NCBI GenBank assembly: GCA_964602865.1 | Contig: CAZRSX010000003.1 | Span: forward strand, 65,288-129,287 | Length of the DNA stretch: 64,000 nt | Origin: an uncultured Candidatus Saccharibacteria bacterium | GTDB lineage: Bacteria > Patescibacteriota > Saccharimonadia > Saccharimonadales > JAGQNJ01 | Reading direction: 5' to 3' | Part shown: positions 21,225 through 54,987 of the stretch, piece after piece | Position numbering within the stretch: position 1 is the first letter of the stretch | Layout: the number at the start of each line of letters is the position of its first letter | Made by a program: the position numbers and the translations under genes | Notes under the pieces: generated by a model | Database searches by the model: none | What the model was told of the DNA's origin: nothing | The model's input: the letters and a program-made list of their open reading frames with translations, nothing else

Positions 21225-22181
21225 CTAGTGATGGATGACGATATCAAAGGCGTCTTTGGAGAAGAAAATTTCCTGACTCGGATAGACGAGATTGAGATCG
21301 AGGTTCGGATCGCCGCTCATATAGGTCGTTATTTGGGCTGCCTGGTGCACGTCGGCCGCAGTGGCAGCGTGACCGCGCGCGACTAGACCATCGGTAATAA
21401 CCTGCCCATAGGTATCGCCCGGCTGCACAGTGTGGTGCAGATCGGCTGGCGCCGGTGGCGCTTGCGGTATTGCCGGAGGTGTCGTATTGAATTGGTCTAT
21501 GGCCTGGTCAATCGCCGGACTGCTTGGCGTACGCGGCGCCGGGATCTGGGGTTGATTGCTGGCATCCAAGGTGTCCGGCATATGGTCAAACAGCCCTTGG
21601 GCAACGGTTTGTTTGCCTTGCCCGCCTGATAGACCTTTGTATGCCAGGTACACCCCGGCCGCGGCAGCAACCGTGGCGCCAACTGCGGCAAGGACTTTTT
21701 TGGTGCGCGGGCTGGTTTCACGCTCGCGACGGTTTCGCGTCGCCCACCGCGACTGGATGTTCGTCGCCACTGCCGTCAGCGAAAAACGTCCAAGTTTCTT
21801 TTTGGCGGGTAGCCGCTCATTCGAGGCCTCTTGCTCGGACGGTGCAACAAGCGCTGTTTCGAGCACTTTTTCGTCTACATACTGCTCCACGCCAAAACGA
21901 GCTGGCCTGAAATCTCCGGCTGGTTTCTTTGGTGATTTATGACCATAAATCACCAGCCCGGTCTGAATATCATGAACTGGCGCCAGTGCCTCTGATTCGC
22001 CTGATTTTAATTCTGGTTGCGGGTCTGGCAAACCACGACCATACCTTTTTTGGCCAATTGCGGCTTCAAAACGTTGACGCGACTCTAAAATATCGCTGGC
22101 ATACTCAGCGACTGGGTCGAAATCAGAAATTGACGGCTTGTTAGCTTCCGGGGTGTTTTCGGGTGAGAGAGAATCATGCAT
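21225..22181 (-). CDS. hypothetical membrane protein with C-terminal LysM-like segment
   Basis: 318 aa. Central TM (VLAAVGATVAAAAGVYLAY). C-terminal HTVQPGDTYGQVI...VYPSQEIFF resembles a LysM repeat. Confidence 0.45.
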   Translation of the reverse strand: MHDSLSPENTPEANKPSISDFDPVAEYASDILESRQRFEAAIGQKRYGRGLPDPQPELKSGESEALAPVHDIQTGLVIYGHKSPKKPAGDFRPARFGVEQYVDEKVLETALVAPSEQEASNERLPAKKKLGRFSLTAVATNIQSRWATRNRRERETSPRTKKVLAAVGATVAAAAGVYLAYKGLSGGQGKQTVAQGLFDHMPDTLDASNQPQIPAPRTPSSPAIDQAIDQFNTTPPAIPQAPPAPADLHHTVQPGDTYGQVITDGLVARGHAATAADVHQAAQITTYMSGDPNLDLNLVYPSQEIFFSKDAFDIVIHH

Positions 22182-22265
22182 ATCTTTTTATTATACCATA
22201 GTTGTCAATACTTTGTCAATATCCTGAGAAAGTTGAGCTCCATTGTAGCCAAACTTTCTAAAATT

Positions 22266-22274
22266 TGCTACAAT
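22266..22274 (+). promoter_or_regulatory. extended -10 promoter (TGcTACAAT) upstream of the tRNA-like locus
   Basis: TGCTACAAT at 22266-22274, about 35 nt upstream of the tRNA-Gln-like 5' end at 22309. No convincing separate promoter is seen in the 39-bp spacer before the intact tRNA. Confidence 0.4.
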
Positions 22275-22308
22275 TTCCCCTGTTCTTTGCGATTTTATAT
22301 TTCGATGA

Positions 22309-22454
22309 TGGGGATTGGCCAAGCGGTAAGGCAGCGAGGTCCAAGGTCCCATGATCGGGGTGAGAAATGCCGGTGGCATTTCGCAAGGAAACCTTCCTTC
22401 GAAAACTTGTTTTCAAAAGTGAAGTTTCGGGCTCGCCGAAGGTGAGTCGAATCC
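22309..22454 (+). pseudogene. tRNA-Gln-like 5' portion with ~85-nt insertion in the T-arm, lacking a 3' acceptor strand (attL-like junction)
   Basis: TGGGGATTGGCCAAGCGGTAAGGCA is 24/25 identical to the start of the intact tRNA at 22494. The anticodon-arm region GCGAGGTCCAAGGTCCCAT does not form a 5-bp stem / 7-nt loop. After TGATCGGGG the T-arm is interrupted. No ATCCCCA acceptor strand follows locally. Confidence 0.6.
22352..22454. repeat. left copy of 103-bp direct repeat (DR-L)
   Basis: Aligned by hand with 43191-43293 at an offset of 20,839 bp. 101/103 identical; the only differences are TC (22399-22400) vs CT (43238-43239). Confidence 0.9.
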
Positions 22455-22493
22455 GATTCGAACCCCGCGTATGTTAAAATCAGAATTATTTAT

Positions 22494-22567
22494 TGGGGAT
22501 TGGCCAAGTGGTAAGGCAACGGGTTCTGGTCCCGTGATCGGGGGTTCGAATCCCTCATCCCCAGCCA
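22494..22567 (+). tRNA. tRNA-Gln (anticodon CUG), CCA encoded
   Basis: Hand-folded: acceptor TGGGGAT/ATCCCCA with the U1-A72 pair typical of tRNA-Gln; D-arm GCCAAGTGGTAAGGC; anticodon arm ACGGG-TTCTGGT-CCCGT; T-arm GGGGG-TTCGAAT-CCCTC; discriminator G + CCA. Close to E. coli tRNA-Gln2 in layout. Confidence 0.9.
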
Positions 22568-22581
22568 GATGCGACAGTTTT

Positions 22582-22607
22582 AAAAGAGACCCATATGGGT
22601 CTCTTTT
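22582..22607. terminator. bidirectional rho-independent terminator
   Basis: AAAAGAGACCC-ATAT-GGGTCTCTTTT is a perfect 11-bp stem with A/T tracts. It sits between the tRNA (+) and the 3' end of the KAP NTPase gene (-). Confidence 0.8.
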
Positions 22608-25984: not shown

Positions 25985-27286
25985 TCAAGGATGTTGCATA
26001 TAAAGCCGACTCCTGTAGATCTTACGCCCTTTAACAAGTAGTGGCACGTTTAGTCCTCGTAAGAATCCGTCTTGTTCACTTAAGGTTCCTTGTTTGAGCG
26101 TATAGCTTGCAAAGTTACGGAAATGATCTCTTTCTGTGAGCTCAATCCCGTGATCTTTAATCAGCTGACTTGTTATTCGTTTATGCTGCTCTATTTTCTT
26201 AAAAACTGACTCGCTTGGCTCAACGTCATCAAGTTCGCCAGCTTCTATCATTGCCAGTATTTGCTCGACTATCATATGTGACTTTATTGATGGTTCAGGA
26301 CAATCAGGATCCTTAGTAGATTTCGTACACCGATAGTATACGTGTCTATTTTTGCCACCATCTTTACGTTTCTTGAAATGTTCCTCAACCGTTAACCTAG
26401 ATCCACATGATCCACAGTAAAACAGATGCTTGAATGGGAACTTCTTTGATCCCCATGCGGGTTTGTTGTCAGGTACGATAGATGCCATTCTACCTCGAAC
26501 GATATCGAATAGCTCTTTTGATACTATTGGTTCGTGCTTGCCTTTATACAGAGGTCCACCTACGGGATACGCAAAGTATCCATAATAGAAAGGATTGGTC
26601 AGTATTCGATAAATCTGGCTTAGCGAAAGCCGTGCCCCTGACTTAGTTGTGAAGTCGATACTATCAAGCCAGTCCTTTATTTTTCGCCCACTTTGGTTTT
26701 GTAAGCCTGATCGCTCAAACACCTCTCTAATAATTGGTGCTCTATCAATATCGAGGACTATGTCTTTCACGCCACCAAATGATCGATTTATGTAGCCGAT
26801 AGGAGCTGCGCCTGGCCGCCAGCCCATTTCACACTTGGCACGTATCCCACGTTTGACGTTAATACCTCTGTTATCATTCTCAAGCTTTGCTTGTGAACAT
26901 AGAATCATGAGCAGGAACTTCTCGTTTGGAGTATTACTGAAACTCTGCCCGAAGGTTCTTATCCTTTGCAGACGATTCATGTCCATGAGATCGACTAACG
27001 ACCCAAGATCTCCAGCATTTCTGCTTAGCCGATCAGGTGCCCATGTCAGAATCGCATCAAACTTGCCGTTTCGTAGATCATGCAGAAGTTCGTTGAACAC
27101 TGGTCTATGTCCTGATTGTTTTGCCGAGAAGCTTTCCTGTTTTGTATCTACAATATTCAAGTCTTCGCGTTCTGCCATCGCCATCATCTCTTTGATCTGT
27201 GAGTCGATTGACATCGCTTGACGTTCATCGGATTCGCTTGATTTGCGGGCATAGAGACAGTATCTGAGCTGAACGGTTTCTTCCAT
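25985..27286 (-). CDS. large serine recombinase (resolvase/invertase N-domain + recombinase domain + zinc ribbon)
   Basis: YCLYARKSSESDERQAMSIDSQ contains the catalytic Ser region. DAILTWAPDRLSRN follows, and the C-terminal part has CGSCGSRL...YYRC. Start at MEETVQL (27286) or 27295. Confidence 0.85.
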   Translation of the reverse strand: MEETVQLRYCLYARKSSESDERQAMSIDSQIKEMMAMAEREDLNIVDTKQESFSAKQSGHRPVFNELLHDLRNGKFDAILTWAPDRLSRNAGDLGSLVDLMDMNRLQRIRTFGQSFSNTPNEKFLLMILCSQAKLENDNRGINVKRGIRAKCEMGWRPGAAPIGYINRSFGGVKDIVLDIDRAPIIREVFERSGLQNQSGRKIKDWLDSIDFTTKSGARLSLSQIYRILTNPFYYGYFAYPVGGPLYKGKHEPIVSKELFDIVRGRMASIVPDNKPAWGSKKFPFKHLFYCGSCGSRLTVEEHFKKRKDGGKNRHVYYRCTKSTKDPDCPEPSIKSHMIVEQILAMIEAGELDDVEPSESVFKKIEQHKRITSQLIKDHGIELTERDHFRNFASYTLKQGTLSEQDGFLRGLNVPLLVKGRKIYRSRLYMQHP

Positions 27287-27325
27287 CAACAACAAGGTAC
27301 CGCAATAATTATAGAAGTCTAGGCT

Positions 27326-41170: not shown

Positions 41171-42364
41171 GTGTACACACATCTCAAAGAACGCCAATTT
41201 TACGAAGATATCTACGATAAACACACTGTAGAGTCTGGTCGTCGTGGCATGGTTCATTATGAGAAGTTCTATAAAGAACTCGAAGCGAAGCTCGACAAAG
41301 ACGATACTATCGACAGGCCGGGTAATGCAATCCTACTCAATGCTTTTTATATGCAAATTATCGGCCTTGAGCTACTTGAGCGCTATGAAAACCGAGAACA
41401 ATACATTACCGACTGGATGGCCAAGGACGAAGTTAAAGACGAGCAAATTACCTCAGCAAGGCTGAGCGAAGAGCCGTACTGCCACAACTGTGGCAAGCAA
41501 GGGCTTAGGATTATAGACAAATCACTGATGCACCGAAGCAAGACCTATAAAATCGGCGATCCTGAAGAAGTCCTATTTATGCTTCGCTGTCCGCATTGCG
41601 AGAAGAACAGTGCCTTTTGGGAAGACGGCACTGCTTGGAAGGTAAAGCCAACCGTCTGTCCAAAATGTAAATCAGAAGTGACGCATAAGACTACTAAGAC
41701 CAAGAAAGCCATCACAATCACTTATACCTGCACCTCTTGCAAACATAGCTTCAAAGACAAGATGGATCTTACTGAAAAGAAAGAAGAACCTGACCCCAAT
41801 TTTGATAAAGACCGTGCTCATTTCTGTTTGTGGGACAAGGAGTTCCGCGAGCATGTATTTGCCACCAAGAAGGGCTTTGAAGACATGGCTCGGCTTGGTA
41901 AAGAGATGAAAGAAAAGCAAGACAATAAACATCTCTACGATGCTATAAAAGAGATTAAGAAGCCAAAGATCGCTGAGCTATCTACTATTCTGGCTCCCGC
42001 ACTGGAAAAGGCCGGATATATTGAATTTCACTTGGATAAACCCGAAATGGGACGAGATGTTTATATCGGCTTCAGCTGTCTAGATAGCAAAAGTGACCGA
42101 AACGACTACGATAGCGAAAAGACCTTAAGGAAGACTGTTCAGGCCGCGCTGACAGATACTAATTGGCGACTTATGAGTGACGGCATACATTACAGGCTCG
42201 GATACCTGAACGGACGACTACGAGCCTACGAGCGCGAAGAAGATCTTAAGAATTTAGTCGAGAAGGATATTAAGGCCGGTAAGCTCGTGCCAAAGGCTCC
42301 TAAACCTGCCGATAAAGACCCCAATACTCTCTTAGCACCTGACGGTACGAAGATAATACTATGA
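41171..42364 (+). CDS. hypothetical protein with two CxxC...CxxC zinc ribbons
   Basis: 397 aa (GTG start; next in-frame ATG at 41249). CHNCGK...CPHCEK and CPKCKS...CTSCKH. Lys/Glu-rich. Confidence 0.45.
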   Translation: MYTHLKERQFYEDIYDKHTVESGRRGMVHYEKFYKELEAKLDKDDTIDRPGNAILLNAFYMQIIGLELLERYENREQYITDWMAKDEVKDEQITSARLSEEPYCHNCGKQGLRIIDKSLMHRSKTYKIGDPEEVLFMLRCPHCEKNSAFWEDGTAWKVKPTVCPKCKSEVTHKTTKTKKAITITYTCTSCKHSFKDKMDLTEKKEEPDPNFDKDRAHFCLWDKEFREHVFATKKGFEDMARLGKEMKEKQDNKHLYDAIKEIKKPKIAELSTILAPALEKAGYIEFHLDKPEMGRDVYIGFSCLDSKSDRNDYDSEKTLRKTVQAALTDTNWRLMSDGIHYRLGYLNGRLRAYEREEDLKNLVEKDIKAGKLVPKAPKPADKDPNTLLAPDGTKIIL

Positions 42365-43086: not shown

Positions 43087-43114
43087 GCATTAAGGGACTA
43101 GACCTGTATGCTCA

Positions 43115-43156
43115 GCCAAAGCAAGGCTCACTCGCAAGAGTGGGTTTTGCTTTGGC
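43115..43156 (+). terminator. long GNRA-capped hairpin at the right end of the island (terminator or structured RNA)
   Basis: GCCAAAGCAA (43115-43124) pairs with TTGCTTTGGC (43147-43156). The inner stem GGCTCACTC/GAGTGGGTT is capped by a GCAA tetraloop (43134-43137), giving ~19 near-continuous bp. Only a weak T-tract follows. Confidence 0.4.
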
Positions 43157-43190
43157 TCTTGTGATGCGAGTTCGAATTCCCGATCAAAAG

Positions 43191-43293
43191 TGATCGGGGT
43201 GAGAAATGCCGGTGGCATTTCGCAAGGAAACCTTCCTCTGAAAACTTGTTTTCAAAAGTGAAGTTTCGGGCTCGCCGAAGGTGAGTCGAATCC
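43191..43293. repeat. right copy of 103-bp direct repeat (DR-R)
   Basis: 101/103 identical to 22352-22454 (see DR-L). Confidence 0.9.
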
Positions 43294-43307
43294 CTCATCC
43301 CCAGCCA
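43191..43307 (+). pseudogene. tRNA-Gln-like 3' portion (variable loop, interrupted T-arm, acceptor 3' strand and CCA); attR-like junction
   Basis: TGATCGGGG + insertion + GTCGAATCCCTCATCCCCAGCCA. The last 22 nt (43286-43307) are identical to the 3' end of the intact tRNA-Gln (22546-22567). No matching 5' acceptor strand is found nearby. Confidence 0.65.
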
Positions 43308-43389
43308 AGAAAAAGATGGCGGTGCATTCTCACCCCCAACCAAAAGCCTGATATACGAAATTTGAGTATTTACAGGTAGAATAGCTGTA

Positions 43390-45510
43390 ATGGCTAAAAA
43401 GATACAGAGCGACGAGCCGTTATTCGTAAGGCAGGATATCGGCAGCGGCAGGCCGATTGTGCTGTTGCATGGCATGTTTGGCGATGGCACGCAGTGGCGG
43501 GTCATTGCTGATCTGCTGTCCGACTATTTCCGCGTGATAGTTGTGGATCTACTCGGTCACGGAAAATCACCAAGACCAAAAAACGCCAAATATACACCGG
43601 ACGAGCATTCGCGGTCGCTCAGGAAAACACTTGAAAAGTTAGGTGCAACTGGGGATCTGACAATTGTTGGGTACTCAATGGGGGGCACAGTTGCGCTAAA
43701 GTACGCTGCCGACTACCAGGACGTCTCTCAGCTTTACATGATCTCTACGCCGTTTTATCTCCAACCGGAAGAAATGGTAAAAACCGGCTATGCAAATTCG
43801 CTTATCTACACAAAGTTTTCTCTAACGCTGTATCGCTGGGTAGATAAATCGCTCAAAAAAGACAAACTGCTGTATAAAATTGTCGAGAAAGACAGTCTCA
43901 TGAAATGGCTGCATATGCTGATTGACGCTTACGACAACAAACTCGATCCTGAAGTTACTCGTTTGAATCTTAAAAACTTAATCAATGAGTTTGAGTTTGC
44001 AAAAACTCTGCAAAAAGTAACGTCACCGACCACTTTTTATTCTGGCAAACGGGACGTTTTTGTCGTGCATGGCCAGTTATTGGCGTTGAGAAAAATAAAA
44101 CCCTTGATGGAAATAGAAACACTGGGCATTGTCAAAAATGACCATATGCTTGTTCAATATTTGCCACAGCAGATGGTCGAGGTATTGACGCGTTACCAGC
44201 AGCAATTATTACACGTGGGTACAGATGTTGGAGCGGGCGAGGTGCTGATACTGCTGCACGGTATCGAAAGTTCTTCGAGTTACTGGGACAATATTGTGCC
44301 CGAACTTTCAAAAAAATATCGCGTTATAACTATAGACTTGCTGGGTTTTGGCGAGTCGCCGAAACCGCGAAATATTGCATACGACTTAGAGGATCAAGTT
44401 ACGTGGCTCAAACGCACGCTTGATTCCATGGGAATAAAAAGAATAAGTATGCTTGGTCATTCACTTGGGGCGTTGATAGCCATGGCATACTCGGCGACAT
44501 ACCCAAACGAGGTACGGAAATTGTATCTGGTTTCTCCAGTAATTATCGACTCGAATGTAGATCACCGAAGGTTACTAATCAAAAAGTTCAACTACATAGA
44601 AAATTTTTCTGACACCGGTTATCTCGTTTCTACTATTTCCAGGACTGTTGGAAAACAAAGGATTGCCAAATTTATTCCGACCATTCGGTCCGTTACCAAT
44701 GCGGTAAAAAATCAAAATTCAATCGCCTTAGCCAAACGGATTAAAAACGTAGACACGACTATTATTTACGGAGAAAGAGATCAACTGGTAGATGAGCAAC
44801 AATTACGTTCAGTTGCCAGCAATATACCAAAATCCAACGTCATAAAAATTAGCTCTGGCGGGCACAATTTTTTACTCTATCAACCCGATAAACTGCTCCA
44901 TATAATGCAACCGGAAATAAAAAATACTTCAGTAAAAAAAGCAAAAGTAAAACCAGGCCGTGTTATCGCGCAACTGGTCAAATTAGCCAGCCCGATACTA
45001 CTCATCAAAGGACTTTTGTATATAACCGCCGGGCTGCTGCTTTTCAGCCAATACAAAGAAGAAACGCTCGTAGCCGGAATAGCAGTTTTGGTAATGTTCC
45101 AGAGTTTTCAGTTCATCCGCGGGTCTTTTTCTCTAAAAAACGAGGGATTGTCATACATAGGGTATTTTTCGCTTGGTATTATCGGCATACTCACTGGCAT
45201 CGTACTAACGAATCACTTCAAGTTTTCGCTGTGGCTGACTCTTGTGATGGTGTGCGGATATATTCTGATCAACGGTTTGTCCAGAATAGTAGCCAGCGTG
45301 TTATGGATAACCGATAAGGGTCTCCGTCGTAAGCAGCTTTTGAGCGGACTACTGCTTTTCCTTGTTGCTATTACCGCGTTCTTCGGAAGTCTGGTAAGTG
45401 TGTATGCAATCGTATATTCGATAGCAGGCTATTTGCTGGTGCGAGGCCTCACTTTTGGCTTTTATTTGTTCGTGTCGTTACTTGCGGCATTTTCGAGAAG
45501 TTACTATTAA
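43390..45510 (+). CDS. tandem alpha/beta-hydrolase domains fused to a C-terminal polytopic membrane domain
   Basis: 706 aa. Two hydrolase units (VLLHGMFGD...GYSMGG and ILLHGIESS...GHSLGA nucleophile elbows), followed by 5-6 predicted TM helices (res ~540-700). Confidence 0.7.
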   Translation: MAKKIQSDEPLFVRQDIGSGRPIVLLHGMFGDGTQWRVIADLLSDYFRVIVVDLLGHGKSPRPKNAKYTPDEHSRSLRKTLEKLGATGDLTIVGYSMGGTVALKYAADYQDVSQLYMISTPFYLQPEEMVKTGYANSLIYTKFSLTLYRWVDKSLKKDKLLYKIVEKDSLMKWLHMLIDAYDNKLDPEVTRLNLKNLINEFEFAKTLQKVTSPTTFYSGKRDVFVVHGQLLALRKIKPLMEIETLGIVKNDHMLVQYLPQQMVEVLTRYQQQLLHVGTDVGAGEVLILLHGIESSSSYWDNIVPELSKKYRVITIDLLGFGESPKPRNIAYDLEDQVTWLKRTLDSMGIKRISMLGHSLGALIAMAYSATYPNEVRKLYLVSPVIIDSNVDHRRLLIKKFNYIENFSDTGYLVSTISRTVGKQRIAKFIPTIRSVTNAVKNQNSIALAKRIKNVDTTIIYGERDQLVDEQQLRSVASNIPKSNVIKISSGGHNFLLYQPDKLLHIMQPEIKNTSVKKAKVKPGRVIAQLVKLASPILLIKGLLYITAGLLLFSQYKEETLVAGIAVLVMFQSFQFIRGSFSLKNEGLSYIGYFSLGIIGILTGIVLTNHFKFSLWLTLVMVCGYILINGLSRIVASVLWITDKGLRRKQLLSGLLLFLVAITAFFGSLVSVYAIVYSIAGYLLVRGLTFGFYLFVSLLAAFSRSYY

Positions 45511-45570
45511 ATTATTCTTGAAGATCTAGGTAGCGGTTACATCAAAATTCTGCCCACAATTTCCGGCAAA

Positions 45571-45696
45571 GCACAAGATTCGCCCTTAGTGCAATTTGGG
45601 ATGAAAACCGAGCACCGGAGCGGAGGCGTACTCCTGTTACGGTGAGTATCGGAGACGCAGGTTTTCGCCCAAAGGGTGCAAGTACGCAACTTGTGC
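45571..45696. ncRNA. candidate rod-like structured RNA (family and strand unknown)
   Basis: Co-linear pairings: GCACAAG/CTTGTGC (45571-77 / 45690-96), CGCCC/GGGTG, TTTGGG/CCCAAA, GAAAACC/GGTTTTC, then apical CACCG...CGGTG with GGAG-GCGTA-CTCC. Lies between a gene end (45510) and the downstream promoter TGTATAAT (45727-34). Confidence 0.3.
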
Positions 45697-45764
45697 AAAG
45701 AAAAATGCACAAGATTCATTTATGCATGTATAATAGATGCCACATCTATTATAAGGAGGTAATT

Positions 45765-46121
45765 ATGTCAGAAATTTCATCTAACACGTCTTCACTAAGT
45801 AAGAATAAACTAATAATCATTGCCGTTGCCGTACTGCTTGTGGGTGGAATCGCCGGTTATTTCATCGGGGTAAACACGACGGAGGATAAACAGCAAGAAG
45901 AACTTTCGTCGTTACAGCAGGAACTGGAACAGGCAAGGACAGGCGCCAGCGACGAAATACAGGAAGGACAAGAGGCTATTACCGAAGGTCAGCAGACACT
46001 TGAATCACTACAAGCTGAGAACGCCTCACTGAAAGCGACAATCGAACAGCAAAATCAGAAAATTGCCGATCTTGAGCAACAGCTCGAAGAAGCAGGGTCT
46101 GCAACTCCTCCAACACAGTAA
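45765..46121 (+). CDS. membrane-anchored coiled-coil protein
   Basis: Start at ATG 45765, preceded by AAGGAGG. MSEISSNTSSLSKNKLIIIAVAVLLVGGIAGYFIG, then a Gln/Glu-rich coiled coil. Confidence 0.55.
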   Translation: MSEISSNTSSLSKNKLIIIAVAVLLVGGIAGYFIGVNTTEDKQQEELSSLQQELEQARTGASDEIQEGQEAITEGQQTLESLQAENASLKATIEQQNQKIADLEQQLEEAGSATPPTQ

Positions 46122-46187
46122 GACTCATCAGTCTATCAACCCCAAGACCATCGTTCTATTTTTTGCACTTCCCAGAATTTAATGTGC

Positions 46188-46943
46188 CTAGAGGTGGTCA
46201 ATAGCATCGAGATAGTCTAATAGGTCTATCTCTAAGCTTTCCCATGTATCTTTTGTCGCATCTGTCTGCCGAGACCATTCCAGAGCATCAGCACTATTGA
46301 TAAAATCAAGTATCCTCAGTGCAGCAGGTCGTAACAAAGGATGAGGAGCGTACTCCTTTAAATAATCTACGTTGAAGCACAGATTATACATAACATCATC
46401 TATGGACGCCTCCCGGTGGCTCAAAGCATAGTCAACATCTACCATGTAGAGTTTTGGGGATTGATCGCCGTGTACTTTGCCGTACATGAATTGTGCTGGA
46501 CGAATCTCATACGCATATGGCATATTATGCTGATAAACAGTTACAGAGTACTCCGTTAAGCCCTCTAATAACGATGCGGCAATTTCAGGTGGAAAGTCTA
46601 ATTCGTCAACCTTACGACCCATTACCTCTGAGGTGACAAATTTGGCAATATGGAACAACGCAGGAAACCGGGCGTTGTCGGAATAGTTTACCCCTACAAG
46701 GTACTCAGGCGGATCCGATTCGGCAATTACATTCCAATGAGGCACGACGTTAAGCCCGCTAATCTCTTCAAAATCCTTTAATGCAGTGTCGTAACCTACA
46801 AGATCATTTTCGTCACTATACTCCTCAACACGTACAACGTATTGGTTTGTATCTGAGAATTTTCTTAAATCGCCATTGTAGGCAAATAGCCCTTTTTCCA
46901 AGGGTGCACGGAATGGCTCAGGATAAGACGTGTCAATCGACAT
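46188..46943 (-). CDS. hypothetical protein
   Basis: 251-aa ORF with no confident family. The LYMVDVDYA segment is vaguely kinase-fold-like. Confidence 0.5.
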   Translation of the reverse strand: MSIDTSYPEPFRAPLEKGLFAYNGDLRKFSDTNQYVVRVEEYSDENDLVGYDTALKDFEEISGLNVVPHWNVIAESDPPEYLVGVNYSDNARFPALFHIAKFVTSEVMGRKVDELDFPPEIAASLLEGLTEYSVTVYQHNMPYAYEIRPAQFMYGKVHGDQSPKLYMVDVDYALSHREASIDDVMYNLCFNVDYLKEYAPHPLLRPAALRILDFINSADALEWSRQTDATKDTWESLEIDLLDYLDAIDHL

Positions 46944-47098
46944 TACTATATTATACTATACAATTGTATTTTATACAAGTGTCACGCTCCCCAGAAAGGA
47001 CCTGGCTCGTCTGTACAGCTAATTCAGGAATAACAGGGATCCATCGTGCAGCTACAACACGATTTCTTTCTATAAAGCCAGTTCCGATACCTGAAGAT

Positions 47099-47524
47099 TT
47101 ACGGTTTCCGCAGAATTTTTTCCATTGCTTTTCCCTTTGCTAACTCGTCGATTAGCTTATCTAAGTAGCGGATTTCCTGCATGGTCGGTTCTTTGATATC
47201 TTCCACCCGCACACCACAGATCACGCCTGTAATCAATTTTCGCGAAGGATTGAGCTTAGGCGCCTGCGTATAGAAAGTTTCGAGGTCTGTTTGCTTCTCC
47301 AGTTGCGCCGCTAACTCTTTCTGGCTGTATCCTGTCAGCCAGCGAATAATTTCATCGACTTCCGCTTTTGTATACCCTTTTTTGGCTGCCTTGGCGATAT
47401 AATAAGGGTAGACACTTGCGAAACTCAGACTATAAACGCGCTGTAATGTTTTATCGGCTTCTTTCATAATTTTCTTTATTTTAGCACGAAGATATAGGAG
47501 TTCCTGGCCGGCACGTTCAGCCAT
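47099..47524 (-). CDS. DUF2200-like protein
   Basis: [38 protein letters not shown] matches the DUF2200 core as remembered. Alternative start at 47467. Confidence 0.6.
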
Positions 47525-47811
47525 AGTAGATTCAAACCAAAAAAGACTATGAGGCTATAATAAGACGGTAGCCAGAATAGCAGTGCTCGATTATCGCTTA
47601 CAAAGCGACGTTCAGCAGCAGACTCAAATACTTGCAATCAACAAGCTAGACTTTCCAAAAGAGCGTTGCGCGGAGAGGAACCGCATCCCTAAAACAGGCG
47701 ATGCAGATATTGCACCGGTAGCACCTTAGGAGAAAATTGATAAAAATTTCTTAGACATAAAATAGACATTACTAGTAATATCTGTTAATATATTACTGAG
47801 GTACCTCAATT

Positions 47812-48510
47812 ATGACCCCTAGTAGCCCGCTCCGAAATGCCGAACGCTCTGTCCTAAGCTTTGATCTATGGATGACGCTCATTAGAAGCAATCCCGAGTT
47901 CCGGCCTGCCCGCAACGCAGTTTTCCGGTCAGCAATTGCTCCCGCTATGCCTGCCGAAGAGTTTGATCGAATTGTCCATGAGCAAGATAGTATCGCCGAC
48001 ACTATCGCTGAACAAGACGGACGAGATATGTCGTTTGAAGAACGTGTACAGATGATCGCCCAGGCTGCTACCGCATCTCACGTAAATGCGCTGACTATGG
48101 AAGGTCTTTACCAACAACAGACTGAACTACTCGAAACTCACCCACCTATCCTATTGTCACCAAGAACGGCCGACGTACTGGAACAACTTGGTACTCGATA
48201 TGACCTGGCCGTAATTAGTAATACCGGTTTTATCCGTGGCAGAGAAATGCGGCGAATGCTTGGTTCGTTGGGTGTTCTGGAAAGCTTTCAATATTTGATA
48301 TTTTCTAATGAAATCGACTCGCCCAAGCCCGATAAGCGTATCTTTGATGTACTCCTTCAGCTTGCTCAAGTACCAGCAGGTGCCGTTACCCATATTGGCG
48401 ATAATATGATTGCTGACATACATGGCGCCCGGTCTGCCGGTATGAGAGCAATCCATCTGAAGTCGGGCATGACTATTGAGAATATTGCACGAAGAGTGGA
48501 GGCGCAATAA
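47812..48510 (+). CDS. HAD-superfamily hydrolase
   Basis: 232 aa. SFDLWMTLI (motif I-like), VISNTG (motif II), KPD...HIGDNMIADIHGA (motifs III/IV). Confidence 0.65.
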   Translation: MTPSSPLRNAERSVLSFDLWMTLIRSNPEFRPARNAVFRSAIAPAMPAEEFDRIVHEQDSIADTIAEQDGRDMSFEERVQMIAQAATASHVNALTMEGLYQQQTELLETHPPILLSPRTADVLEQLGTRYDLAVISNTGFIRGREMRRMLGSLGVLESFQYLIFSNEIDSPKPDKRIFDVLLQLAQVPAGAVTHIGDNMIADIHGARSAGMRAIHLKSGMTIENIARRVEAQ

Positions 48511-53250: not shown

Positions 53251-54987
53251 ATGGCAAAAAAATCAACCAAGCGGCAAGGTAAAATGAGAAGATTCTTCAA
53301 CAAACTTAATCCTAATTCACCGGCCAAAAAATTGGTAGCGTTTGTACTAGTCTTTGCTGTCCTTGGTGGCGGATATTATGCCTATCGGAGTTTCGCCAGC
53401 ACCGAACAAGGCGTTGTTAATGGTAATATCGTTGCGTTGCGGGGGCAATTCCATCTTGCATCGTCGAGTAGTCAGCACGGTGTGTTTTTAATTGACCCTT
53501 CTTCTGGGCAGCAAAAAAAACTAGACTGGGCAACCCCCGATAGAGTAGGGTACAGCCTGGACTTTGGCCGTTTTGTCGTTTCGCCAGACGGCTACCGTGT
53601 AGCATATTTTGAGTGCCCTGCACTTACATCCTATTGTGACCTTAAACACAGCATCCTCCACAGTGGGGGTGACACAAAGCACGTCGCGCGCGTCAATACT
53701 TACGGTGTGCCTCCAGGTCAACTAAATTGGTCGACGGATAGTAAGTATTTAACGTTTGCTGGTACCAGTAGATCCATGGAAGGTCTCCCATGGGAACAGG
53801 GCTTTAGTGATGTATACAGTGTGCCAGCAGCTGGAGGAACTGTACTTAATTTAACAGGCTCTCGGCCTTCAAATTACTATTCAATACCCCTCTTCATTGA
53901 TGAAAAAAATATTATTGTACATCGAAGTTGGAAAGACGAGAGCGGCACTCATCAGGGTGGTCACCAAAAAATTGATGTCACCAATAAAACACAGTCAGAC
54001 ATAGAGCTTGATATAACCAGTGGAGACAAGGATGAATTTGATAACTACATATCGAGCTTCTTTATCCCAAATAATACACTGTATGACTATAATGCTCGTA
54101 CTGGTAAAACATTGTCTTCCCGGCTCAATGACCGCTCTACAGAAGAGTTTTTCATTGCTGTTGGCAAACTCGAATCCAACACAATTGCATACGAAAAAAC
54201 CCTCAAACATGAACTTTCAGACATAAGTGTCTTCAAGCATCCTGGATGGTCGCCCGATGGAAACCAGTTCTACGTAAATAATGCCGTCTTTGCGGCTAGT
54301 GATGGTGCATTAGTGAAGAAGTATGGTAATGAGTTTGACATCATAGACTGGGCAGCAAAATATGAGACGTTCAACCCTACCGGGGTCACAACCCGCCAGA
54401 CTATGTCTGCGTTCTTGTACCGTGTTGCCGGCAGTCCGGCTGTACCAACCGCCAGTCAAAAATGCGGCACAGGTAAACCAGGGCCATTCACCGACGTCAA
54501 AGGTGACCACCCATTCTGTAAGGAAATAGAGTGGATGAGGGCAACCGGCCAAAGTACCGGGTACAATGATGGTACCTACAAGCCCACCGAGAAAGTGACC
54601 CGCCAAACCATGTCTGCGTTCTTGTACCGTACCGCTGGCAGCCCAAGTGTACCCACAGCAACCCAGAAATGTGGTGCTGGCAAACCCGGTCCGTTCACGG
54701 ATGTGAGAGGCAATCATACGTTCTGCAAGGAAATAGAGTGGATGAGAGCTAACGGCATAAGCACCGGGTATGCTGACGGAAGCTACAAACCGACCGAAAC
54801 TGTCACCAGACAAGTCATGGCATCGTTCCTGCACCGGCAAAAAGGCGAACCCAATCCAGGACAAACCACGCCACTCTATGCTGACGTACCAAGCAACCAC
54901 CAGTTCTTTAAAGCCATACAGTGGCTCGGAGAACAAAATGAACCTGCTGCAACAGACAGAAGCATGACTTCAAAGAAAACGAACTAA
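53251..54987 (+). CDS. secreted beta-propeller-like protein with three C-terminal SLH domains
   Basis: 578 aa. Leader MAKKSTKRQGKMRRFFNKLNPNSPAKKLVAFVLVFAVLGGGYYAYRSFA. C-terminal repeats TRQTMSAFLYR...FTDV...F.KEIEWM...G.STGY.DGTYKP are S-layer-homology-like. Confidence 0.7.
   Translation: MAKKSTKRQGKMRRFFNKLNPNSPAKKLVAFVLVFAVLGGGYYAYRSFASTEQGVVNGNIVALRGQFHLASSSSQHGVFLIDPSSGQQKKLDWATPDRVGYSLDFGRFVVSPDGYRVAYFECPALTSYCDLKHSILHSGGDTKHVARVNTYGVPPGQLNWSTDSKYLTFAGTSRSMEGLPWEQGFSDVYSVPAAGGTVLNLTGSRPSNYYSIPLFIDEKNIIVHRSWKDESGTHQGGHQKIDVTNKTQSDIELDITSGDKDEFDNYISSFFIPNNTLYDYNARTGKTLSSRLNDRSTEEFFIAVGKLESNTIAYEKTLKHELSDISVFKHPGWSPDGNQFYVNNAVFAASDGALVKKYGNEFDIIDWAAKYETFNPTGVTTRQTMSAFLYRVAGSPAVPTASQKCGTGKPGPFTDVKGDHPFCKEIEWMRATGQSTGYNDGTYKPTEKVTRQTMSAFLYRTAGSPSVPTATQKCGAGKPGPFTDVRGNHTFCKEIEWMRANGISTGYADGSYKPTETVTRQVMASFLHRQKGEPNPGQTTPLYADVPSNHQFFKAIQWLGEQNEPAATDRSMTSKKTN
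54385..54950 (+). repeat. intragenic ~207-210-bp tandem repeats encoding SLH domains (about 2.7 copies)
   Basis: Units start near 54385, 54595 and 54802. The first two are highly similar at DNA level (…ATGTCTGCGTTCTTGTACCGT…AAGGAAATAGAGTGGATGAG…). Confidence 0.7.

Follow-up and report, generated by a model that had tools for sequence, protein, structure and literature searches.

The integration of mobile DNA into tRNA genes is textbook biology, and integration in tRNA and tmRNA genes was reportedly sorted into sublocation classes by Williams in 2002. Structured RNAs occur at the ends of several mobile elements, as in the bridge RNA of IS110 and the omega/reRNA of IS200/605, and in integron attC sites, IS200/605 ends and CTX-type attP sites a strand-specific folded DNA is recognised by the cognate recombinase or transposase, whose gene lies nearby or elsewhere in the genome. 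The attP and attB sites of large serine recombinases are short imperfect palindromes, and the attL and attR sites that they give rise to share the central dinucleotide only. Genomic islands integrated in tRNA genes, together with the gene fragments that they displace, are collected in the Islander database (PMC4383910), and in Caldiarchaeum subterraneum an integrating element disrupted a tRNA gene (PMC3293823). In Patescibacteria, tRNA genes contain self-splicing group I introns of more than 200 nt, located in the anticodon loop of complete genes (PMC13011429).

The locus described here contains an 87-nt structured insert, designated element E. It lies in a stretch of 64,000 nucleotides from an uncultured Candidatus Saccharibacteria bacterium, the whole of which is referred to as the window. 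The relevant features of the window are as follows:

22246-22274, plus strand: promoter-like site (TAGCCA-17-TACAAT, with TG upstream) before the displaced tRNA 5' fragment, a consensus match only
22309-22360, plus strand: displaced (orphan) 5' part of a tRNA-Gln gene (TGATCGGGG), recognised by its 24/25 identity to the intact gene
22352-22454, plus strand: left copy of a 103-nt direct repeat bracketing the island, 98% identical to 43191-43293
22361-22447, plus strand: element E, copy 1 (E1), 87 nt; 111.5 bits with covariance model R1, structure from 83 copies
22448-22454, plus strand: CGAATCC, a short arm of tRNA homology that follows E, completes the T loop and opens the T-stem 3' strand, from reading the sequence
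22455-22493, plus strand: spacer Y, 39 nt, between the short arm and the intact tRNA, from reading the sequence
22494-22567, plus strand: intact tRNA-Gln(CUG) with encoded CCA; ARAGORN and Rfam, 61.7 bits
22582-22607, plus strand: terminator-like hairpin and T-run after the intact tRNA
22652-43086: island cargo, from gene and domain calls
25985-27295, minus strand: large serine recombinase with Resolvase, Recombinase and Zn_ribbon_recom domains
43100-43190, plus strand: conserved right end of the island, consisting of AGACC..GCTCAGCCA, a palindromic terminator (43116-43155) and then X
43191-43293, plus strand: right copy of the 103-nt direct repeat, with 2 mismatches to the left copy
43200-43286, plus strand: element E, copy 2 (E2); 114.2 bits with covariance model R1
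43287-43307, plus strand: displaced (orphan) 3' portion of tRNA-Gln, comprising the remaining T loop, the 3' strands of the T-stem and of the acceptor stem, then G and CCA

An earlier, sequence-only reading of this DNA had described a tRNA-Gln remnant with an insertion of about 85 nt, followed 39 bp downstream by an intact tRNA-Gln(CUG), and both descriptions held, with the insert now defined as 87 nt. The displaced 5' part comprises the acceptor 5' strand, the D arm, a decayed anticodon arm, the variable loop and the T-stem 5' strand. As that reading had noted, its first 25 nt (22309-22333) match the start of the intact gene (22494-22518) at 24 positions, and its anticodon region (22334-22351) is 2 nt longer than that of the intact tRNA-Gln and contains mismatches. 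The variable loop and the T-stem 5' strand are formed by GATCGGGG, directly after which E begins at 22361, and tRNA sequence resumes after the insert with TCGAATCC at 22447-22454. Both the remnant and a reconstructed gene were submitted to tRNA finders and Rfam: neither the region 22309-22470 nor the 5' part joined to E and the 3' end was called as a tRNA by ARAGORN or Rfam, even in intron mode or at E <= 10. Only 22494-22567 qualified as a tRNA gene by an RF00005 match or an ARAGORN cloverleaf. These results supported the view that the upstream copy is a non-functional remnant at the island boundary and that the island side supplies the working tRNA-Gln. The earlier proposal of a decayed tRNA kept at an attachment site therefore survives as regards the remnant and the tRNA-Gln provided by the island; what did not survive is the idea of a dead, unique insert (see below).

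The surroundings of the two tRNA copies were also inspected. The extended -10 noticed earlier upstream of the remnant was found again, as part of the promoter-like site at 22246-22274, in front of the 5' fragment; of the terminator proposed at 22582-22607, the hairpin and T-run are visible by eye and are absent from the scan output. Spacer Y contains an inverted T-arm-like sequence (GATTCGAACCCC), which forms with the short arm the palindrome TCGAATC-C-GATTCGA, and an extended -10-like sequence (TGTTAAAAT) at 22472-22480; this layout recurs in L073, L098, L091 and other loci. Directly 3' of the intact tRNA lies GATGCGACAG, which is conserved beside this family of large serine recombinases. Two MAGs with relatives of the recombinase have a tRNA-Gln(CUG) that matches the window gene at 100% identity, and the window probably belongs with the Saccharibacteria and Patescibacteria in which these relatives occur.

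The insertion had also been reported in the copy at the other end of the island (attR), and it is indeed present there, within the 43191-43293 repeat. Directly after this right repeat comes CTCATCCCCAGCCA, which holds the T-stem and acceptor 3' strand, with CCA, that the left-hand remnant lacks. Between the repeats lie 20.8 kb with a GC content of 41%, versus 52% in the left flank, and the cargo families include a KAP NTPase, the large serine recombinase, a ParB-methylase, a type IIG restriction-modification enzyme, helicases, DUF2779 and PDC-S18. No tyrosine integrase was found in a Pfam search of the island, in which the ORF at 41171-42364 matched no Pfam family. At the right end, X is an inverted degenerate copy of the variable loop, T-stem and T-loop, and it forms the palindrome CCCGATC-AAAAGT-GATCGGG at 43179-43198. 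A direct repeat containing part of a tRNA gene thus surrounds a compositionally distinct segment, as in displaced fragments at the boundary of integrative elements, and this segment carries a recombinase and has the intact target tRNA at one of its junctions. With the 103-nt repeat, the 5' part on the left, the 3' end on the right and the island between them, the locus is a tRNA-Gln gene split by a defence island, with E at both junctions. An exact-protein look-up of the flanking host genes, which are orphans, matched no other contig, and consequently no empty site was recovered.

In several respects the locus, and the others containing E, resemble known islands in tRNA genes: the target gene is interrupted within a loop that has a symmetric stem around it, the lost part is provided by the incoming element, and the displaced fragment marks the other end, with fragment arrays of serial integration in L174 and L175. 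They differ in having a conserved 87-nt structured module within the loop of the fragment, and in that most E cassettes have neither cargo nor integrase, and some exchange the 5' part and its promoter, or even the complete tRNA. The disrupted gene of Caldiarchaeum is similar in that a 5' fragment was left upstream of the new gene copy and an intervening sequence was added (PMC3293823); that case, however, is archaeal and the added sequence is a spliced intron of a functional gene, whereas E stays in a non-functional fragment.

Element E consists of three hairpins closed by a stem of the host tRNA arm. In copy 1, H1 pairs 22361-22371 with 22375-22385, and includes the 8-bp hairpin at 22364-22382 that had been seen before; H2 pairs 22388-22405 with 22410-22428; and H3 is a 7-bp helix, GCTCGCC/GGTGAGT, pairing 22431-22437 with 22441-22447. 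In the consensus obtained with RNAalifold from 83 distinct copies, H1 reads UG.GAAnnGCC with GGCnnUUC.CA and H2 is a long rod. This multi-copy comparison replaced the TTCGG/CCGAA stem drawn previously by GCTCGCC/GGTGAGT as the conserved helix. The two GGTGAG motifs are located where they had been placed, at 22359-22364 and 22441-22446, and had been considered a possible 6-bp target duplication. The first is constant among copies, whereas the second is the 3' strand of H3 and reads CGTGAC or GGTAGG in others, which indicated that they are internal element sequence and no target duplication.

The covariation analysis strongly supported this structure. Compensatory double changes were found in 22 of the 33 pairs among the 83 distinct copies; 96.3% of cells were paired, versus 76.7% when the 3' partners were shuffled and 27-43% in slid registers; and the covariation score was 0.50, which none of 500 shuffles reached, versus 0.15 after shuffling. 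G·U cells numbered 166 versus 33 for A·C, the tRNA-sense strand was 96.3% paired but the opposite strand only 91.5%, and one G·U pair was kept in 82 of the 83 copies. E accordingly shows the compensation beyond shuffle and slide controls, and the strand-specific G·U, of a conserved structured RNA, in a set of related sequences collected by pattern. The excess of G·U over A·C assigned the fold to the tRNA-sense strand, which points to a molecule that may be either an RNA read in the direction of the tRNA or that single DNA strand. The folding energy of E as a single sequence is unremarkable (z = -1.6 to -1.7), and the case for its structure consequently rests on comparison. Taken by itself this energy would fit a random decayed remnant whose hairpins arose by chance; against more than 130 homologous copies and compensatory changes in two-thirds of the pairs, that explanation is so improbable as to be negligible.

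Since the copies were gathered by a sequence pattern, the invariance of GGUGAGAA, GU, UU and CAAGG is in part due to ascertainment, and some pattern positions vary in copies that were not detected with the pattern (L028, the second copy in L118, and L190). The sequence conservation of the H1 region suggests that E may have a specific partner or activity and is more than a spacer. Two candidate relationships were examined by eye and rejected: a minihelix between X and the acceptor 3' strand, due to poor complementarity, and a dependence of the H1 sequence on tRNA isotype, as Gln loci alone have at least four H1 variants.

Rfam 15, searched at the gathering threshold and at permissive E-values, contained no family for E in the window or in 40 further E loci, and returned only tRNA and scattered chance matches. 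Hammerhead-like CUGAUGA/GAAA cores were absent. No match to the E region was obtained by BLAST against phage and plasmid collections or in scans of viral contigs, and in the literature searched, displaced tRNA fragments were nowhere described as carrying a conserved structured module. By contrast with the dead remnant that the sequence-only reading had considered, the element proved to be widespread: a degenerate pattern of the first hairpin matched at least 120 metagenome contigs, and a covariance model built on the 83 distinct copies gave 137 E matches in 100 of the at least 120 contigs listed, with up to six or more per contig. Homologues with 72-87% identity to E are found in L073, whose architecture is the same as that of the window, L055, L068 (two copies), L025 and L028, and diverged forms in L012, L079 and L004. 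On these comparative grounds, E is a structured family, absent from Rfam 15 and from the literature searched, that occurs in many Patescibacteria lineages.

The relationship between E and the recombinase was analysed from both sides. Relatives of the window recombinase were found in 197 stretches of the genome collection, almost all of them from Saccharibacteria or Patescibacteria MAGs, and in most of 80 such loci a tRNA-Gln lies just beyond the recombinase gene; E is present in 8 of these 80 related Saccharibacteria/Patescibacteria loci. Conversely, recombinase homologues occur in only 3 of 120 E-bearing metagenome loci among the matches listed. A recurring recombinase or nuclease beside E was sought in these 120 loci and none was found, the neighbours being housekeeping genes. 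E and the recombinase family are therefore only weakly associated. E resembles the bridge and omega RNAs, as a resemblance only, in being a conserved folded module at an element boundary flanked by target-derived sequence, but it is much smaller and no IS110, TnpB or IscB gene was found with it.

The position of E relative to tRNA genes is highly regular. An intact tRNA of the same strand and isotype was found by ARAGORN beside 91 of the 137 copies, and at least 13 isotypes are represented (Gln, Leu, Lys, Glu, Val, Arg, Ser, Ile, Pro, Gly, Ala, His and Thr), so that the element is not, as it had seemed from the window, specific to this tRNA-Gln. Two arrangements were distinguished, with two E copies falling in both classes. 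In the upstream type (45 copies) the tRNA starts about 125-150 nt after the start of E, and the order is 5' partial tRNA, E, some 10 nt of further tRNA homology, a spacer that contains an extended -10 as well as an inverted T-arm-like motif, and the intact tRNA. In the downstream type (48 copies) the tRNA ends about 65-87 nt before E. Here a palindromic terminator abuts the CCA of the intact tRNA, and after it come X (with an inverted degenerate T-arm copy), 8-10 nt of variable loop and T-stem 5' strand, and E; the remainder of the T loop and the acceptor 3' strand, CCA included, then lead into a second terminator. The distance between tRNA and E is only about 75 nt in most loci of the downstream type, which thus have no cargo, and 34 of 43 such loci have no upstream 5' duplicate. 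Both arrangements occur within about 290 nt in L068/L100/L138, L098, L184/L141, L118 and L158, and in L174 a tRNA-His is followed by two successive cassettes.

E usually replaces T-loop positions 53-55; it was also found in the D loop or D arm (L004, L079, L012, L159 and L166) and in the anticodon loop (L127). The homology boundary follows the position of E, whether this is the T, D or anticodon loop, and the short arm beyond E has a median of 10 nt in both types, which is just enough to rebuild the stem that closes E. When E was excised in silico from 103 copies, a tRNA was recovered across the junction in one case, a dubious one, which argues that E is not, by its sequence context, an intron of a complete gene.

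The proposal of a non-canonical intron in the T loop of a functional tRNA-Gln, removed after transcription, accordingly has to be regarded as highly improbable. In its favour, E is structured and lies in a loop closed by the stem of the arm, and introns are common in the tRNAs of Patescibacteria (PMC13011429). The acceptor 3' strand, however, is 20.8 kb away, the gene copies are partial in 102 of 103 cases with an intact copy alongside, and the anticodon arm of the window remnant is decayed. In addition, no group I or II intron was matched at E <= 10 in the window region or at E <= 1 in 20 loci. The tRNA introns known in Patescibacteria are group I introns of the anticodon loop (PMC13011429). 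E shares with them the phylum and the nature of a structured tRNA-loop insertion missed by standard finders, and differs from them in its size of about 87 nt, its location mostly in the T loop, the incompleteness of the copies that it interrupts and the lack of a group I core, as judged from the absence of an Rfam match.

The account that we favour, and consider reasonably probable, is that E is a conserved end-module of tRNA-gene-targeting insertion cassettes and islands in Patescibacteria, which caps the displaced tRNA fragment. Insertion would interrupt an existing tRNA gene within one of its loops, in most cases near positions 53-55 of the T loop. The cassette would bring along either the lost 3' part and a terminator, the 5' part and a promoter, or an entire new tRNA with a promoter or terminator of its own. 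The displaced fragment would be left capped by E and about 10 nt of tRNA sequence, rebuilding the closing stem. The window would then combine an upstream-type junction, in which the 5' fragment (22309-22360) bears E1, the working tRNA-Gln(CUG), the recombinase-bearing defence island, and a downstream-type junction, in which the 3' fragment (43287-43307) bears E2. E would be folded as RNA in the tRNA sense, probably transcribed from the old tRNA promoter at the 5' fragment, and it may either serve the element or neutralise the orphan fragment, the latter because replacement of T54-Psi55 would abolish the tRNA elbow and interrupt the palindrome of the att site and T arm. The two window copies may have arisen when two E copies recombined, or else in two distinct cassette events. 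The main arguments are the tight coupling of E to the homology boundary and the right end shared by the window, L025 and L028, which together indicate that E belongs to the incoming DNA. Some observations fit this account less well: the fold could also form in single-stranded DNA of the same strand, the recombinase family overlaps only weakly with E and no protein family recurs beside it, one conservative crossover would not by itself place E at both junctions, and orphans without E, nested E modules and E outside tRNA contexts would fit an independently mobile insert.

Such an insert would be a small mobile or repeat element in its own right, similar to a MITE, PATE or REP sequence or else dispersed by gene conversion via its conserved T-arm flanks, that landed secondarily in hairpin loops of unselected tRNA fragments; E1 and E2 would have landed after the island and a mini-cassette had split the gene. 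Besides the orphan fragments without E (L005 and the right-hand orphans of L110), this explanation can draw on the presence of six or more copies on some contigs, the tandem or nested modules of L174, L158, L088 and L189, the occurrence of E in D, anticodon and T loops and outside recognisable tRNA contexts, the sharing of E subtypes by different tRNA isotypes and the lack of an obligatory link to a recombinase. Like REP, MITE and PATE sequences, E is short, multi-copy, hairpin-forming, non-coding and sometimes tandem. Unlike them, it is a three-helix junction with a strict orientation and position relative to tRNA fragments, and a test for MITE- or IS-type features in E detected neither terminal inverted repeats nor a target duplication. 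Its constant location about 10 nt from the end of tRNA homology, in any loop, would be unexpected for random landings in orphans of 33-65 nt. Finally, the right end formed by GCTCAGCCA, terminator, X and E is common to the window, L025 and L028, that is, to all three recombinase islands whose far end is visible. We consequently regard an independent repeat as rather unlikely, and retain the interpretation of E as an end-module of the cassettes.

What is new, as judged from Rfam 15 and the literature searched, is a strongly conserved, covarying three-helix module in the loop of displaced tRNA fragments, associated with at least 13 isotypes in many Patescibacteria lineages. E defines a family of structured nucleic acids with a precise genomic grammar, and accounts for a class of tRNA-like sequences overlooked by tRNA finders; it also reveals very small cassettes without cargo that take the place of a tRNA gene, wholly or in part, in genomes regarded as streamlined. 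E could also be an active component of a new class of tRNA-gene-replacing mobile cassettes, and not a passive cap, that recruits or guides the recombination machinery or processes itself. Many of the cassettes comprise only about 190-300 nt and are protein-free, and a folded RNA or single DNA strand with tRNA-derived arms could either guide that machinery to the matching tRNA loop or, by self-processing, release defined tRNA fragments. The strand specificity of the fold would be compatible with the recombination sites that are recognised as single-stranded DNA. We put this forward as a tentative idea that is unlikely to be right; a role of E in recombination or RNA processing would represent a new mechanism, and even a passive cap or selfish repeat would be a useful marker of island boundaries in these uncultivated bacteria.

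The two E copies of the window were finally considered in relation to the crossover that could have produced them. The 103-nt repeat shared by the junctions differs from the att products expected of a large serine recombinase, and each end of the repeat has a palindrome, at 43179-43198 and at 22447-22461. A single conservative crossover would give E at both junctions only if the host tRNA had already been interrupted contiguously by E. E may instead be the attachment site itself, the island having entered by a homologous or site-specific crossover between two pre-existing copies, one in a host tRNA-Gln(CUG) already interrupted by E and the other carried by the island beside its own tRNA-Gln. 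We consider this explanation possible, though doubtful. A repeat of 103 nt and 98% identity exactly at the island ends would be unexpected if a serine recombinase had joined an attB and an attP unrelated to each other, and the decay of the anticodon arm in the 5' fragment, with E itself not decayed, is also in its favour. It would, however, require a parent allele in which the 5' part, E and the 3' part are contiguous: no such allele was present among the 103 copies, most loci have E on one side only, and for essential tRNAs the allele would be lethal. Only in an isoacceptor that the cell can spare would it be viable, for example in Gln(CUG), provided that tRNA-Gln(UUG) reads CAG.

Loci with two E copies (L068, L098 and L184) provided further information. 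In them, a block of about 37 nt, formed by the variable loop, the T-stem 5' strand, H1 and CGCAAGG, is identical between E1 and E2, and beyond it the two copies diverge. H1 was identical in all flanking pairs examined, versus 6.3% of between-locus pairs. A block that is identical on the left, with the rest differing, would be expected from partial gene conversion of an independent repeat, and would equally resemble a crossover confined to the longest identical stretch between two attachment sites; its edge looks like a crossover or conversion boundary that would lie inside E. In the window, the identity between E1 and E2 spans the whole 103 nt, with 2 mismatches.

In many Saccharibacteria MAGs, the tRNA-Gln that is linked to the serine-recombinase family of the window is immediately followed by the motif CCA-GATGCGACAG, which is probably a signature of the junction side that came with the island. 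The motif occurs at window 22565-22577 and at six of the compared loci (L001, L004, L012, L013, L017, and L019). The island at window 22652-43086 is a defence island, and its genes encode the following:

KAP NTPase, QatA-like
ParB-N/methylase fusion
type IIG restriction-modification enzyme, MmeI-like (PADLOC, 973 bits)
DEAD helicase
T5orf172 protein
UvrD helicase, GajB-like, with a DUF2779 partner
PDC-S18

An 89-aa ORF (window 22176-22445, plus strand) runs across the promoter-like site, the tRNA fragment and also E1, the left-hand copy of the three-hairpin element E. Since conservation of E is of the RNA type, this ORF is most likely spurious.

Besides its common form, E was found as a variant, E-b, in which the first hairpin (H1) and CGCAAGG are retained, the second (H2) differs (CCGGAAGCCGG...GAGGCGG), and the third (H3) includes an A/U-rich hairpin. 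This variant (L079, L012, L185, L094, L119, L143, L107, L135, and L170) is often located in the D arm instead of the T loop. A shorter arrangement was observed in L110, L111, L144, and L153: a 12-nt spacer separates the intact tRNA-Gln from the displaced 3' fragment and resembles the GG at the start of E joined to the bases at its end (GGAAGTGAGTT-TCGAATCC is one example). This spacer looks like a copy of E with an internal deletion.

The displaced tRNA fragments also carry other inserts. In L095, L196, and L198, the orphan 5' fragments upstream of E contain a second conserved hairpin insert in the anticodon loop, CCCCAC-AAAACAG-GTTTTGTGGGG-(A/G)CCCCG, together with E in the T loop. In the displaced 3' fragments of L083, L095, L103, L131, and L186, other, seemingly unrelated structured inserts occupy the position of E, approximately 70-160 nt past the intact tRNA. 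E may belong to a broader class of such inserts. Copies of E lacking a recognisable tRNA fragment context were detected in L092/L157, L097/L163, L125/L139/L142, and L134/L181, and no Rfam families were found at these non-tRNA contexts; in L134, some 200 nt separate the copy from a serine-recombinase gene downstream of it.

Outside the island, GC content is still low (43-44%) at window 43300-48000, and since it persists for about 5 kb past the right-hand repeat, the island may have another stretch of foreign DNA as its direct neighbour there. Further downstream, a 207-nt unit is present as two copies in tandem showing 72% identity (window 54362-54775).
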